Positions 16,456 through 22,926 of a DNA stretch of 64,000 nt are shown here, in pieces (within the stretch, counting starts at the first letter, position 1; each line of letters opens with the position of its first letter). Below the pieces are notes generated by a model, which was not told the DNA's origin, did not search any database, and was given only the letters and a program-made list of their open reading frames with translations. Position numbers and translations under genes: made by a program. Location: sequence record PV245934.1. The stretch is one strand, 5' to 3'. The DNA is from Escherichia phage sutha.

Positions 16456-16776
16456 TTATAGCGTAATCCATTCTCGTATTGTCTGAGTTACTACACGTTC
16501 ACGGGGCTCGACTAGTTCAACAGTCGGAACTGCATAATACCAGTCAGAATGGTAAGAACCTGAGCGAGATTCATTTACAGACACATGAACGTTATGTTTT
16601 GGACTAAAATAAACGCACTGCCGATACTGGCATTTGCCATCTTGTACCCAATCTTCTATTTCGACAGGTTTAAGATAATCCGAAAAATCGAAATCATAAT
16701 TTTCTGAAAATGCATCATGGTCTTCGATGATTTCACTCAGAACTGCATCAACATCTAATTTATTTTCAATATTCAT
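16456..16776 (-). CDS. hypothetical protein (106 aa)
   Basis: ORF in 49.x block. Confidence 0.4.
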   Translation of the reverse strand: MNIENKLDVDAVLSEIIEDHDAFSENYDFDFSDYLKPVEIEDWVQDGKCQYRQCVYFSPKHNVHVSVNESRSGSYHSDWYYAVPTVELVEPRERVVTQTIREWITL

Positions 16777-17436: not shown

Positions 17437-17679
17437 TTATTCCTTAATTCCTAGTACTTGTTTAAAAGTCTCGTCGTAATCAAGACTTTGACCTGTTTGT
17501 TCTTTATGTTTGTATATAATATCACTTACTTCTGATAGCATATTTTTATATGAACGAGTTAAAGCAGATTTAAGTACGCTGTATCTATCAGGAAATTTAC
17601 CGTGTTCATTATAATACGCTATTGCTAATTCACGGACTGCCTTTTCAGCAATCTCCATATATTCTTTACGCTTTGTCAT
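17437..17679 (-). CDS. hypothetical protein (80 aa)
   Basis: ORF in nrdC.x block. Confidence 0.45.
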
Positions 17680-17984
17680 TTTTTTTCTCGGTTAAATCGG
17701 TGTTTGCAATGACGGCATTTATAACGAAGATTACTAGTCTGCCAATGAACTAATTGAACCTGTTCAGTACCGCATTCAGGACAATTAGGAACGTTTTTAG
17801 AAGCCCTTTCGCGGCGTTCAACCATAGCCATAATGGCATCCCAAGCAGGAGGTTTAAAGTCTAGATCGTCACAACCATGAATCTTTCCACGCATTTCTAA
17901 ATCGTCTTCTTCACCAGCCATAATAATTTTAATTAGACTGGAATTACTTGAAGCTGCAATATCTTCTAATAGACGCTTTTTCAT
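17676..17984 (-). CDS. zinc-ribbon protein (102 aa)
   Basis: CPECG...CRHCKH four-Cys motif. Confidence 0.45.
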
Positions 17985-18892
17985 TTCAATACCTCAATAG
18001 CATTACGTAAACCATTTGCTTTTGCATTAAGAGCTTTTAACAATTTAGTGTGTTCGGCAATCTGAGCTTCAACTTCAACTAGTCGAGATTTGAGGTATTC
18101 ACGTTCTTCACTCAGATTATCAACCTTTTCTGCTTTAGGTTCTTTTACAACTTGCTTATATGTATTAGGGTTCTTCAGTTTAATTAGAATGCGTGAACTG
18201 TATAACATTGAACCATTATCTTCGGTTTCATCATACATTTCCACCATCGTGCAGAGTTTATAAGACAACGAACGAATAGTTTTGTTATGCTTATTAATTT
18301 CTCTAGCTGTCATGGTGCCGAGATTACGTGAGTAATAATAAGGAACCTGGATATTAATTAATACTGATGAACCACCTGGCTTGTGTGTTACTTCATCAGC
18401 AATAACCCAATCCTTAACATGAACTGTATTTGTACGGTCATCGCCTGCGGTAAATAGTTTGCGAGCATGCTTAAAAAGCATATTCACTTGGTCATTGAAT
18501 TGACAAGCAAATTTATCAGCAAATTTAGTTTCAGGAATGGTAGATAACCAATCAGCCAAATGGGTCTTTTTAACATCGTTAACAATAGTAAATTCAACCA
18601 AATCAGTTATAGATGTCTCAGATTTAATAAAGCTCGGCTTCATAAAGTTTTTAATGTTATCACGAGCTATCACAGAAGATAGTAATCGGGAACGTTTGAA
18701 CCACTCTAGCAAAGAACCAAGAGAATGTGAATACGCGTTTTGTGTATCTTTACAAATATGGTTTTCCCATCCAATATAGTCTAAAAAATCACGAAGAATA
18801 TTATTGATTACTGCTCTGTGTCCTATCTGATAATTACGATGTTTAGTAATAAGACTATCAAAATAATCAATATAATGTTTACGAGTTTTCAT
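17981..18892 (-). CDS. hypothetical protein with C-terminal coiled coil (tandem family member 1)
   Basis: 303 aa; N-terminus MKTRKHY...; last about 45 aa heptad-rich ([42 protein letters not shown]). Confidence 0.5.
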   Translation of the reverse strand: MKTRKHYIDYFDSLITKHRNYQIGHRAVINNILRDFLDYIGWENHICKDTQNAYSHSLGSLLEWFKRSRLLSSVIARDNIKNFMKPSFIKSETSITDLVEFTIVNDVKKTHLADWLSTIPETKFADKFACQFNDQVNMLFKHARKLFTAGDDRTNTVHVKDWVIADEVTHKPGGSSVLINIQVPYYYSRNLGTMTAREINKHNKTIRSLSYKLCTMVEMYDETEDNGSMLYSSRILIKLKNPNTYKQVVKEPKAEKVDNLSEEREYLKSRLVEVEAQIAEHTKLLKALNAKANGLRNAIEVLK

Positions 18893-18944
18893 GTTCTTCT
18901 CACTTGGTTAATGATTTATGCTCCGAACCATCCTTGGCTTTAAA

Positions 18945-19946
18945 TTACTTAATTAACTGTAAAGCTTGTTCCAAACGATCAAGGCGATTAACAGATTCTT
19001 CCCAAATCCTTTTAGCCTTCTCATATTCTTTCTGCGCTTTATTAGAAATTTCTAGAACTTCTTTATAAGCTTTTTCTAGTGCAATAACTTCTGGACGAAT
19101 TTCTATCGGTTCAGGCGAATCATCAAGATTATCCATTAGTTCCTCAAGTGTAGTTTCTTCTTTAGGAGTATTCACAATTTCATCACATTTTTGTTGGTAA
19201 ATTTCTTTATCAGTCGGTGAATAAGCACATTTCACTTCACGAAGACTAACTACAATTTTGTATCCTTCCCAACCACACGTATTTTTAAAAGGATAAGTAT
19301 GAATATTTTCTACCGTTTCCATACAAAGTAATGCAGTCTCTAATTGCCAAGTTATATCACTAGCAATTGAGAAAAATTTATTAATGTTCTTTTGATTAGT
19401 TTCTGGTGTAAAAAATCTGTAATTAATAAAAATAGCTACTTTGTTTTTATCAAGCTCATATTCTTCTGCTATAATCATATCATCAGCTAATGGATGAATT
19501 TGACGATAACCGCCATAGCATAATTTAGAAGCTGATTTTAGAATTTGCTTCGTAAAACTCCTAAATTCACTAACCCAACGACGAGTAAAAATATTCTCAG
19601 GGTCTTCTTTATTATTGAGATGATAAGAATTAACATCACCGAACCAATTATATCCTACTACATCTTTAGTTCGTTTAATTTCTTTCCCAAATTTACCAAG
19701 AATATCTCTGTTGACTAAGTATGAAAGAAGACGAGACCCTTTAAAGGTTTTCTTAATGTCATCTTTATCTGTACGACTAGAAATTTCACGAACTTCATGA
19801 ATAAATTTGCCAGAAGAAACAATGCTTACATCAATATTATTGAGCCATTGATTGATAATAGAAAGAACACTATTCTGACTAGACATAGGTTTAACTTTAT
19901 CATCAATAACACTGTTGAATGATTTGATATATTCGTTACGAGTCAT
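18945..19946 (-). CDS. hypothetical protein with C-terminal coiled coil (family member 2)
   Basis: Start moved to Met-18 (MTRNEYIKSF, GAGGAG SD) because early promoter -10 lies inside the longer track ORF; shares motif F-x-KQIL-x-SAS-x-L with member 3. Confidence 0.5.
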   Translation of the reverse strand: MTRNEYIKSFNSVIDDKVKPMSSQNSVLSIINQWLNNIDVSIVSSGKFIHEVREISSRTDKDDIKKTFKGSRLLSYLVNRDILGKFGKEIKRTKDVVGYNWFGDVNSYHLNNKEDPENIFTRRWVSEFRSFTKQILKSASKLCYGGYRQIHPLADDMIIAEEYELDKNKVAIFINYRFFTPETNQKNINKFFSIASDITWQLETALLCMETVENIHTYPFKNTCGWEGYKIVVSLREVKCAYSPTDKEIYQQKCDEIVNTPKEETTLEELMDNLDDSPEPIEIRPEVIALEKAYKEVLEISNKAQKEYEKAKRIWEESVNRLDRLEQALQLIK

Positions 19947-19974
19947 ATTAATCTCCTCAGTAGAAAGTAAGAAC

Positions 19975-20004
19975 ATTATACCACATCCTTGTGGCAAAGT
20001 AAAC
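19975..20004 (-). promoter_or_regulatory. T4-type early promoter
   Basis: Minus strand GTTTAC - 18 nt - TATAAT, then GAGGAG SD and ATG at 19946. Confidence 0.55.
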
Positions 20005-21032
20005 TAGTTCAGTGCATTTAGTGCATTGTTCAGTTTAGAACGTTGCTTCGTAAGATTTTTGACTTTTTCTTGAGCTTTTTCTAGTATCTTTTCAGCTTCT
20101 AGCACTTCATTAGTTGCTTTAACGAGTTCATCATCTACTGCCTTGATAGACTTCTCAATCGCATCCGCGTGCCATTTTTCAACAGGTTTAAGACTCGGAT
20201 TTTCAACAGGAAGAAAATTCACTTTATTGAATTTCCATGCATCATTATTACCTGAACTATACATCCAAAATTTAGGATCGTTTGATGAGTAATTGGATAA
20301 ATTTAAATTTAAGTTATCTTGCACTTCTTGCTTTTTCTCTTGCGGGACTTCGTCCTTTCTCAAAAAATCGTATTTAAATGAAACGATCATATCAAGTTCA
20401 TACGTTGTTGTGTCTAATTTAAATCGTTCAAAACGAGGTAAAATCTTAGATTGAACAGCAGCAACAACATCCATATACTTAAATGCTTCTGTCAACTGCG
20501 ATTTAAGGCATTCGCAAATTGAAAGAGAATTTTTTGTATTAGGTTTAAAGCTAATTCGTGCAGTTCTATTATTTTCTTTTAATGGTCTTACTTCCATCTG
20601 AAGAGTATAACCATCAAATTTCAGATTCTTTAAGTTAATATCAGAACCTTTTAACCGACTCGCAGTTGATAAAATTTGCTTTAATTGTCTACGGAACAGA
20701 GCAATAAATCTCCATTCAATACGATAATGATTTGGATTGAAAAATCCAGATGATAAATCGACCTTACTTTGACCAACGCCTTGAACAAATAGAGGATTTT
20801 TATAATCAATAGTTTTACAGAAATCGGTGAGCTGCTCACGGGCCGTCATTTGTGTAATATACCCTGCTTTACTAAAATTACGCACCCATTCACTGCTATT
20901 CGTATACTTAAAGTGATGAATAACACGATTAACTTTATCAGGGTCTAAATTATTTTCACACAAAAATGTCATAGCATCACGAGTATAGCTGGCATTACGA
21001 ACCATATCTTCAATTTGAGAACGAGTTTTCAT
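20004..21032 (-). CDS. hypothetical protein with C-terminal coiled coil (family member 3)
   Basis: 342 aa; MKTRSQ... N-terminus like member 1; central motif shared with member 2. Confidence 0.5.
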   Translation of the reverse strand: MKTRSQIEDMVRNASYTRDAMTFLCENNLDPDKVNRVIHHFKYTNSSEWVRNFSKAGYITQMTAREQLTDFCKTIDYKNPLFVQGVGQSKVDLSSGFFNPNHYRIEWRFIALFRRQLKQILSTASRLKGSDINLKNLKFDGYTLQMEVRPLKENNRTARISFKPNTKNSLSICECLKSQLTEAFKYMDVVAAVQSKILPRFERFKLDTTTYELDMIVSFKYDFLRKDEVPQEKKQEVQDNLNLNLSNYSSNDPKFWMYSSGNNDAWKFNKVNFLPVENPSLKPVEKWHADAIEKSIKAVDDELVKATNEVLEAEKILEKAQEKVKNLTKQRSKLNNALNALN

Positions 21033-21040
21033 GGTATTCC

Positions 21041-21949
21041 TTAAGATTTAAGTAAATCAACAATTTTAATTAACTTTTCACGCTCAGATTTAGCTTTACT
21101 ACTCAGTCCAGATAGTCTGAAAATTTCATCATCATATTGTTGAATAGAAATATTCAGCTCTTCAATCTGCTTATTAAAATAATCAATTTGTTCAGAATGT
21201 TTTTCGTTACTACGAACTGGTACAGGTTTTGCAGGCAATGTAGTTGAACTGGATTCATCCGGGCGATAAATTAAAATACAACTTGAACCAATAGGGCATT
21301 TTGCACCAGATGAATATTCTAATGTTCCAGCTTCTTTTAAAACTTCAAAAGCTAAACAGAGATGATGCCCCATATTAACATAATCTGTAGAGTGAGCTCT
21401 GATGTAATAATCATCTCCACGAGTACTAAATTTAAAGCATTTAAGGTCTTCTGTATTATTGGTCTTAAAAATCATTTGTTTATCTAGACCTTTAGCTAAT
21501 CGAGCACCTAATGCTAATAATCGTCGTTGATTTTCCCACAAATCTGCGATCATTTGGTCAAATGATAATTTCGGCATTAGTCGACCATAAAGGTCATATC
21601 CTTTATTATAATTGCGAAGGATTTCACTCGCATTAATACGAGACAACGCTCCAATTTTATTAAGGGCTTTCATAATGCGATTAGATAAAAGCATTCCAGA
21701 CCCGTTTGTTCGTTGTAAATGTTTTTCTAATCCAAATCCAATATCAACTTTAAACTTATCTAAAATTTCGGCGTGAACATCTTTATCAATAACATTTAAA
21801 TTTAGTACTGGGTTAAATTTATGAAAAAATTTATCTGACTCGTCGTGTTGAAGTACAGTCCATTCATTTGATTTTTTATTAACTAAAGATTTAATTACTG
21901 CATTGACATTATTAATTGCTACTGACATATTTTCCTCACTCAATTTCAA
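21041..21949 (-). CDS. hypothetical protein with C-terminal coiled coil (family member 4)
   Basis: 302 aa; heptad-rich C-terminus; membership in family is by architecture only. Confidence 0.45.
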   Translation of the reverse strand: MKLSEENMSVAINNVNAVIKSLVNKKSNEWTVLQHDESDKFFHKFNPVLNLNVIDKDVHAEILDKFKVDIGFGLEKHLQRTNGSGMLLSNRIMKALNKIGALSRINASEILRNYNKGYDLYGRLMPKLSFDQMIADLWENQRRLLALGARLAKGLDKQMIFKTNNTEDLKCFKFSTRGDDYYIRAHSTDYVNMGHHLCLAFEVLKEAGTLEYSSGAKCPIGSSCILIYRPDESSSTTLPAKPVPVRSNEKHSEQIDYFNKQIEELNISIQQYDDEIFRLSGLSSKAKSEREKLIKIVDLLKS

Positions 21950-22398: not shown

Positions 22399-22926
22399 TT
22401 ATGCGAGTACCGTCTTTAACCGTTCTTCAAACTTCCGAAGAGTATTTTGGCGTTCAGCTCTTTGCTTTTTGTAAGTTTCAATACGCTCTGAAATGAGAGT
22501 GTATCGTTCATTTACTGATTCTTTCATAAAATCAGGAATTTCACGAGAAGCTTTAATCTCATCAAATTTATCAATAACAGCTTGCTCTTCAGCAATTAAG
22601 TTATCATACATCAAAATATCTTTCTTGATGAACTCAATATCTTCTTGAGTTACACGAGATAATTTAGATGCTTTATCCTTTTTGTACTGTTCGTTAGTAT
22701 CACGAGACCAGTGTAATGTACGATTTTTATTCGTATTCTTGTAAATTTCTACAATACCAATCTCATCAATAATAACGATCCAATTCCAACGGGATTTGTA
22801 AATTTGTCCTCCATCAACAGTGATTTCACCTCCGATTGAGATGTCATTAAAGAACTTGCTTTGTGCTTCAGATTTAAATTTACCATCGTTGTAATTTACC
22901 AAGTTGAAAATATCTTTAGCGTTCAT
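22399..22926 (-). CDS. hypothetical protein (175 aa)
   Basis: ORF with GGAGG SD directly downstream of early promoter. Confidence 0.5.
   Translation of the reverse strand: MNAKDIFNLVNYNDGKFKSEAQSKFFNDISIGGEITVDGGQIYKSRWNWIVIIDEIGIVEIYKNTNKNRTLHWSRDTNEQYKKDKASKLSRVTQEDIEFIKKDILMYDNLIAEEQAVIDKFDEIKASREIPDFMKESVNERYTLISERIETYKKQRAERQNTLRKFEERLKTVLA

Follow-up and report, generated by a model that had tools for sequence, protein, structure and literature searches.

Tandemly duplicated nrdC.3 to nrdC.6 genes of Escherichia phage sutha form one superfamily, which includes the anti-Dsr1 gene nrdC.5, and are candidate immune antagonists

Bacteriophage T4 has been studied more thoroughly than any other lytic phage, yet the greater part of its nrdC-mobD segment is without assigned function. 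One uncharacterized early gene of T4, nrdC.5, allows a T4 deletion mutant to plate again on E. coli that harbors dsr1, a SIR2-domain defense gene from ECOR17, and nrdC.5 supplied from a plasmid alone sufficed to restore infection of dsr1 cells (Srikant, Guegler & Laub, eLife 2022; PMC9391042). We found no follow-up in the literature on its mechanism; DSR1 is still termed poorly characterized in a 2026 paper, and for nrdC.3, nrdC.4, and nrdC.6 only gene lists were found. Transposon mapping in T4 classed nrdC.3 to nrdC.6 as non-essential. Here we describe the orthologues of these four genes (genes 1 to 4, in the order nrdC.3 to nrdC.6) in Escherichia phage sutha (PV245934.1), from which a stretch of 64,000 nucleotides, hereafter the window, was analyzed. 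They constitute one superfamily of common ancestry which arose by tandem duplication, the body and the C-terminal tail of the protein being copied together. The genes themselves are long-annotated T4 open reading frames (ORFs); new are the paralogy, which unites three database families, and three candidate antagonists of host immunity.

Described counter-defense genes lie close to the array. Reports from 2025-2026 identify gp49.2 as an inhibitor of OLD and NrdC.1 as an inhibitor of Septu (PMC13096335; bioRxiv 10.1101/2025.11.20.689424). These two, and the dmd-tifA-adfA "anti-TA island" of the T-even phages, are genes of the same kind, early and non-essential, evolving fast and determining host range; 49.2 and nrdC.1 are situated 0.3-1.5 kb from the array and are transcribed in its direction. 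Since both lie nearby, the array sits in a counter-defense-rich segment. The products of the T-even genes are small and unrelated, whereas those of the array are large tandem paralogues with a common fold and a coiled-coil tail. A functional analogue is DSAD1, the DSR2 inhibitor of SPbeta-like phages, which two accounts (PMC10973363, PMC10981675) present as a phage protein repressing a defense-associated sirtuin; comparison of the array proteins with DSAD1 revealed neither sequence nor structural similarity. The closest described protein is T4 NrdC.5 (DUF7235; PF23882), to which gene 3 is orthologous (95.5% identity across residues 1-333; same genomic position). Genes 1, 2, and 4 are remote paralogues showing 10-25% identity to NrdC.5 and possessing other tails, for which reason the same target cannot be assumed for them.

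The window belongs to a Tequatrovirus (T4-like), and approximately 5 kb around the array are 94-96% identical at the DNA level to hundreds of T4-like genomes from E. coli, Shigella, and Yersinia. The four consecutive minus-strand ORFs listed in an earlier note on this DNA are present (Table 1), albeit with a revised start for gene 4; they are separated by 8-57 nt and were assigned through synteny with annotated genomes. The array is found between nrdC.2 and nrdC.7, with nrdC.7-nrdC.11 upstream and nrdC, pin, gene 49, and nrdD downstream. Gene 1 is syntenic with the T4 "36.3 kDa protein in nrdC-mobD region," and nrdC.4 is annotated in T4 with a length of 1002 nt. The match of gene 3 to DUF7235 is full-length (421.5 bits, the cut-off being 30; 1-342 / 1-307 covered), and the PF23882 model matches none of genes 1, 2, and 4. 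PF26899 (Phage_T4_Y05B) is precomputed on all 109 homologues retrieved with the gene 4 profile, including those which are 94% identical. Relatives of the nrdC.3 type carry the PF26897 label; no Pfam label came back for nrdC.4-type proteins. The databases thus split the superfamily in three (Pfam PF26897, PF23882, and PF26899; PHROGs 1435, 2351, and 2257), and only nrdC.3 and nrdC.4 are merged, genes 1 and 2 both being members of phrog_1435.

Table 1. Coordinates of the array genes, their tails and conserved helices, and nearby features in the window.
Feature	Position	Strand	Basis
Gene 1, nrdC.3 orthologue, 303 aa	17981..18892	-	ORF; phrog_1435 E 3.8e-110; synteny
Gene 2, nrdC.4 orthologue, 333 aa	18945..19946	-	ORF; phrog_1435 E 5.5e-164
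Gene 3, nrdC.5 orthologue, 342 aa	20004..21032	-	DUF7235 (PF23882) E 2.8e-126; phrog_2351
Gene 4, nrdC.6 orthologue, 295 aa	21041..21928	-	phrog_2257 E 2.5e-150; PF26899 in homologues
Gene 1 heptad tail, aa 255-303, end ...LRNAIEVLK	17984..18130	-	Heptad score, register
Gene 2 heptad tail, aa 285-333, end ...LEQALQLIK	18948..19094	-	Heptad score, register
Gene 3 heptad tail, aa 286-342, end ...LNNALNALN	20007..20177	-	Score, register, single long helix modeled
Gene 4 heptad tail, aa 240-295, end ...LIKIVDLLKS	21044..21211	-	Score, register, helix-loop(SGLSS)-helix modeled
Gene 2 conserved body helix FRSFTKQILKSASKL (motif of the earlier note)	19521..19565	-	Alignments, profiles
Gene 3 conserved body helix FRRQLKQILSTASRL, equivalent of that in gene 2	20652..20696	-	Alignments, profiles
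Promoter-like site, sigma-70 / T4-early type, TTTACT-17-TATAAT with TG extension, upstream of gene 2	19975..20003	-	Consensus scan only
gp49.2 orthologue	16456-16776	-	Synteny
NrdC.1 orthologue	17437-17679	-	Synteny

BLASTP comparison of the four proteins reveals a sole significant pair, genes 1 and 2 (26% identity over 182 aa, E 3e-7); none of the remaining pairs is significant. Two short likenesses pointed out in the earlier note are genuine: MKTR begins genes 1 and 3 (MTR in gene 2; T3 and R4 do not vary among 12 diverse nrdC.3/4/5 sequences), and the motif FRxxxKQILxxASxL occurs in genes 2 and 3 (EFRSFTKQILKSASKL and LFRRQLKQILSTASRL). Profile alignments place NQRRLLALGARLAKG of gene 4 as the counterpart of this conserved body helix. 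With profiles built from Tequatro-, Gapriver-, Dhaka-, and Mosigvirus loci, hhalign matched nrdC.3/4 to nrdC.5 at E 2.2e-6 (89% probability, 171 columns), and since the match holds for the bodies with tails removed (E 8.3e-6), it is independent of the coiled coil. Direct comparison of the nrdC.6 profile with those of nrdC.3/4 and nrdC.5 did not reach significance (E about 0.1), though even these weak alignments pair the same two helices. The profile comparison which the earlier note had proposed therefore joins nrdC.3/4 with nrdC.5 directly, but nrdC.6 only through intermediates.

These intermediates come from an exhaustive hmmsearch with the nrdC.6 profile against 1.84 billion representative proteins, which returned only 18 proteins. 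Among these are five distant members, full-length with 288-345 aa, and two of the five come from metagenomic contigs of T4-like type, where they occupy the same genomic position. A profile of the distant members matched nrdC.6 (E 2.6e-19 full length, 2.2e-12 body, 2.4e-9 tail), nrdC.5 (E 2.5e-13 full length over 238 columns spanning body and tail, 2e-6 body, 4.4e-11 tail), and nrdC.3/4 (E 7.5e-9 full length, 5.3e-6 body, 3e-4 tail), while reversed-sequence controls for these comparisons were not significant. A profile pooled from nrdC.6 and the five matched nrdC.5 at E 2e-10 and nrdC.3/4 at 3.9e-7. A recombinant origin of the intermediates seems unlikely, because nrdC.5-type motifs (HYA..IE.SI; QR.KL..AI.AL) interleave in them with nrdC.6-type motifs (RRLLALGARL; E.FRLS). 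The proposal that the four genes form one family, which for genes 1 and 4 had been drawn from architecture, now extends beyond it, gene 1 being joined to gene 2 by BLASTP and gene 4 to the others by the distant intermediates and domain order.

The C-terminal tails were evaluated with a self-written heptad score, rather than COILS or MARCOIL, in 28-residue windows compared with shuffles of the same protein. The top-scoring windows are C-terminal in all four proteins (residues 251-300, 286-333, 286-342, and 239-274 of genes 1-4) and exceed the 95th percentile of the shuffles (p <= 0.01), a result not seen with the controls NrdD and NrdC.11. Each tail maintains a single unbroken register over 49-57 residues, or 7-8 heptads where at least four define a coiled coil, with 75-94% hydrophobic residues at a/d versus 18-26% elsewhere and 0-1 Pro/Gly, and the finishing motif is L-x-x-A-[LI]-x-x-L-[KN]. 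By this measure, and by the helices which AlphaFold2 places there in genes 3 and 4, the coiled-coil-like ends anticipated for all four proteins are upheld. Indels in the tails of homologues amount to exactly 7 residues, in keeping with a requirement to preserve the heptad phase.

Among orthologues the tail is better conserved than the body in 10 of 10 cross-genus or cross-allele comparisons; for nrdC.6 the identities are 70% versus 42% and 57% versus 29%. Between paralogues this does not hold: nrdC.3 and nrdC.4 share 11% identity in their tails and 25% in their bodies, and direct tail-tail hhalign gives E values of 1.4e-3 to 0.11. The idea of variable bodies on a conserved C-terminal module is accordingly not supported, as paralogue tails are no more alike than bodies, and body and tail were duplicated together without domain shuffling. 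Because the tails are constrained within orthologue lines yet specific to each paralogue, self-association fits better as their role than docking to one common partner. A heptad-rich end is also seen in nrdC.8 (22399-22926, minus strand, 175 aa; residues 135-175, score above shuffles), a highly conserved neighbor (99-100% identity within the genus, 67-84% across genera; dN/dS 0.02). It was considered as a fifth family member and ruled out, there being no profile similarity to nrdC.3-6.

AlphaFold2 monomer models were prepared for genes 3 and 4, genes 1 and 2 being compared by alignment. The mean confidence was higher for gene 4 (pLDDT 77) than for gene 3 (pLDDT 61, low in the N-terminal part). 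Both models display the same order of elements, namely a helical N-terminal domain, a beta-beta-alpha-beta-beta domain, a disordered linker, and a C-terminal helix. The N-terminal domain contains two conserved helices, ...LS..xA...L..F.K and F......LL..A.[RK]L..G, and the alignment reveals the same helices and a tail in genes 1 and 2. The tail of gene 3 is modeled as a free 56-residue helix (286-341), that of gene 4 as a helical hairpin (245-271 and 277-294). The weaker gene 3 model reflects a shallow alignment, since a word-indexed search with a merged nrdC.3/4/5 alignment yielded no nrdC.4-type and no non-Tequatrovirus nrdC.5-type proteins; an IMG/VR search with the nrdC.5 alignment gave 7 loci only, the back-translated patterns being too degenerate. 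Searches of the PDB by fold and by sequence returned nothing informative, and no enzyme or DNA-binding fold; a match to dTor_6x35L was dismissed as compositional, this being a designed repeat protein. No conserved catalytic-looking polar residues were seen across the superfamily, and no transmembrane segments were predicted in the four proteins.

In BFVD both models match one protein of Enterobacter phage IME523 (E 4.5e-6 and 7.3e-7), as well as further uncharacterized proteins of approximately 300-370 aa from T4-like phages of Acinetobacter, Pectobacterium, Yersinia, Erwinia, Klebsiella, and Aeromonas. The gene 4 model matches proteins of Acinetobacter phage Acj61, Pectobacterium phage PM2, and IME523, and the gene 3 model that of IME523, with a probability of 1.0 (E 7e-7 to 5e-4). 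In Acj61, p120 and p121 lie in tandem beside nrdC and, like the array proteins, possess coiled-coil tails, here ending in LNKALEIMML and LAKALVV.... They and their PM2 and IME523 counterparts differ from the array in having no detectable sequence similarity and low TM-scores: single-sequence hhalign of the Acj61 proteins against the family was not significant, tblastn retrieved only Acj61 itself, and a 310-aa neighbor in another locus (L017) was likewise not significant in single-sequence hhalign. On the strength of the models, homology of the array to the Acj61, PM2, and IME523 proteins is probable.

The array evolves rapidly. Cross-genus identity of nrdC.3-6 is 23-51% or the gene is undetected, the sole exception being nrdC.3 at 77% in Mosigvirus moha; by comparison the neighbors nrdD, endonuclease VII, nrdC, nrdC.1, nrdC.8, nrdC.10, and nrdC.11 are 67-97% identical where detected. 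Within Tequatrovirus the array genes have dN/dS values of 0.13-0.20 versus 0.02-0.09 for most neighbors (pin 0.17, nrdC.7 0.13), which indicates a faster rate and not gene-wide positive selection. Of the "diversifying" family that had been proposed, the faster evolution relative to the neighbors stands, but the gene-wide ratios are well below 1. Copy number varies from 1 to 4 across T4-like genomes: four in Tequatrovirus, three in Gapriver-, Dhaka-, and Mosigvirus, two in Acj61, and two and one on two metagenomic contigs. The nrdC.3/4-type copy which has been kept is nrdC.4-type in Gapriver- and Dhakavirus and nrdC.3-type in Mosigvirus. Members of the family lie within the nrdC to nrdC.11 segment (in T4 between nrdC.2 and nrdC.7) in the window, W143, UPEC07, VR25, UGJNEcP4, moha, the two metagenomic T4-like contigs, and Acj61.

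Rearrangements within the array are found in several phages. An in-frame nrdC.5::nrdC.3 fusion with deletion of nrdC.4 is present in P0056 (three contigs, the longest 167 kb), the junction lying at a common "VN"; in phage CJY920 (L013 5971-6927) a hybrid of an nrdC.4 leader and an nrdC.3 body is the only nrdC.3/4-type copy; and in ACG-C40 (NC_019399.1 47512-47727) nrdC.3 is reduced to its last 72 codons. According to tblastn against the phage collection, the nrdC.3 alleles of Tequatrovirus fall into two classes, one about 92% and the other about 61% identical to the window, and the nrdC.3 of RB69 (Mosigvirus; 75%) is nearer to the window than is the T2-type allele of the window's own genus. 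These sequence relationships suggest inter-genus exchange or long-lived allelic lineages. A further sequence, P0201 (L014; ENA contig ERZ27280904 k141_89665, 803 bp), joins an unrelated 120-aa part exactly to the nrdC.5 tail, followed by the nrdC.4 start; the N-terminal part has a higher G+C content and a helicase-like "RPNQQDAI" string. It was rejected as proof of body swapping, being a single-sample metagenome contig with a junction in a short shared string and a non-phage half that matches nothing in the phage collection; its most likely origin is chimeric assembly, not a natural body swap.

On balance we lean toward the explanation that the array consists of tandem paralogues from a single ancestral gene which serve as immune antagonists with different targets and homo-oligomerizing tails. 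One gene of the T4-like phages (Straboviridae) was duplicated in tandem, the whole protein each time, and each resulting soluble protein of about 300-340 aa would be produced early in infection as a binder or decoy antagonizing a host immune protein. Each paralogue would be tuned to its own target or allelic variant, Dsr1 in the case of nrdC.5. The heptad tail is predicted to drive self-association into homo-oligomers, which may add avidity for oligomeric defense proteins. The paralogy is demonstrated, and the function of nrdC.5 is that given in the literature; for nrdC.3, nrdC.4, and nrdC.6, and for the tail, we infer the roles stated here.

Other explanations deserve consideration. Were these four unrelated genes whose charged helical ends lend them a compositional likeness, the lack of significance of most BLASTP pairs and the heptad-rich tail of the non-family neighbor nrdC.8 would be accounted for; against this stand the body-only profile matches (E 2e-12 to 8e-6) with their clean reversed-sequence controls, the same predicted domain order, and the structural neighbors common to both models, which render it highly improbable. 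The earlier note envisaged that a conserved C-terminal module with interchangeable bodies docks all four proteins on one common host or phage partner. The descent of the four tails from one ancestral tail, in the same register and with the same end motif, and their status as the best-conserved part within each orthologue line would suit such docking, but the tails of paralogues are little alike, the bodies are homologous too with no trace of shuffling, and some phages have only one, two, or three copies; we consider it unlikely.

It is likewise doubtful that the four paralogues join through their tails in one hetero-oligomeric complex acting as a single functional unit. The genes are adjacent, closely spaced on one strand, and probably co-expressed, and their coiled-coil tails are related. 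Yet nrdC.5 alone, from a plasmid, restored infection of dsr1 cells (possibly with the paralogues still present in that phage), copy number ranges from 1 to 4, natural fusions and deletions take out single members, and the tail sequences have diverged. A general early role apart from immunity, for instance in taking over the host or in modulating nucleotide or DNA metabolism, with the Dsr1 effect a side effect, would be congruent with the location among nrd genes and with there being no published mechanism. One HIDEN-SEQ condition records no significant phenotype for any of the four genes, which also agrees with such a role. The genes are, however, non-essential, their sequence turnover is extreme, with orphans even between related genera, and neither the polar residues expected of a catalyst nor an enzyme or DNA-binding fold came to light; we regard this explanation as unlikely.

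Several points nevertheless weigh against the antagonist explanation which we favor. Anti-defense activity has been demonstrated for one of the four genes only, and in T4, not in the phage of the window; no mechanism of nrdC.5 has been published, and direct binding of NrdC.5 to Dsr1 is putative; and to these is added the HIDEN-SEQ result. The dN/dS ratios are far below 1. With regard to ancestry, nrdC.6 is not joined in direct profile comparison, and its link rests on intermediates that were picked with the nrdC.6 profile itself. The gene 3 model is of low confidence, and TM-scores to the viral structural matches are 0.3-0.47, low because domain placement is flexible.

A more specific, and at present improbable, version has the antagonists acting as decoys. 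The beta-beta-alpha-beta-beta domain would mimic a fold of phage structural proteins (tail tube, terminator, or completion-like) to which host sensors, among them the DSR proteins, respond, each paralogue occupying the sensor of a different system; the paralogue-specific tails would keep the homo-oligomers separate, so that duplication could yield new specificities without cross-interference. DSR2 is known to sense the tail tube protein. The only hint from the array comes from ranks 11-49 of the BFVD Foldseek matches of the gene 3 model, a series of weak similarities (E 5e-3 to 4e-2, probability 0.18-0.98) to proteins of the tail completion, tail terminator, head-to-tail connector, minor tail, and tail tube types. 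These matches presumably run via the beta-beta-alpha-beta-beta domain and, given the low confidence of the model, are a mere lead.

Some details of the locus merit mention. For gene 4 the most likely start is ATG 21928 and not TTG 21949, 21 nt further upstream, since the ATG is preceded at 4 nt by a GAGGAA ribosome-binding site, homologues from four genera all start MS.AIN, the phrog_2257 match begins at residue 8 of the longer version, and nrdC.6 is annotated in T4 with 891 nt. The gene 2 start at 19946, preceded by GAGGAG, was kept. The promoter-like site (20003-19975) overlaps the alternative upstream starts of gene 2, and the consensus scan found no excess of such sites over shuffles across the array region. 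Gene 1 possesses six residues fewer than its relatives around aa 215-222 (...LCTMVEM[MDVVEM]YDETE...), hence 303 rather than 309 aa, which looks like slippage at a short VEM repeat. In Gapriver-, Dhaka-, and Mosigvirus an ORF of 66-71 aa separates the nrdC.6 and nrdC.5 homologues (L003 6733-6948, L011 3860-4060, L012 6879-7079); it is absent from the window, where these genes are 8 nt apart. Many deposited genomes label nrdC.1-nrdC.11 "thioredoxin," seemingly propagated from the locus name nrdC, and one gene "Mur ligase domain-containing protein." On the array genes these GenBank names are, judging from their domain content, annotation artefacts, because Pfam detects neither domain.

The paralogy brings together three database families of unknown function that are listed as unrelated. 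Probable relatives adjoin nrdC in T4-like phages of Acinetobacter, those of Pectobacterium, Yersinia, Klebsiella, and Aeromonas being matched by structure only. Provided that they are paralogues of the anti-Dsr1 gene nrdC.5, nrdC.3, nrdC.4, and nrdC.6 would be three specific, directly testable candidates for new immune antagonists, the possible targets of which include other NADase or SIR2 systems or allelic variants of Dsr1, and the array would represent a natural case in which a counter-defense repertoire has been widened through tandem duplication and divergence.

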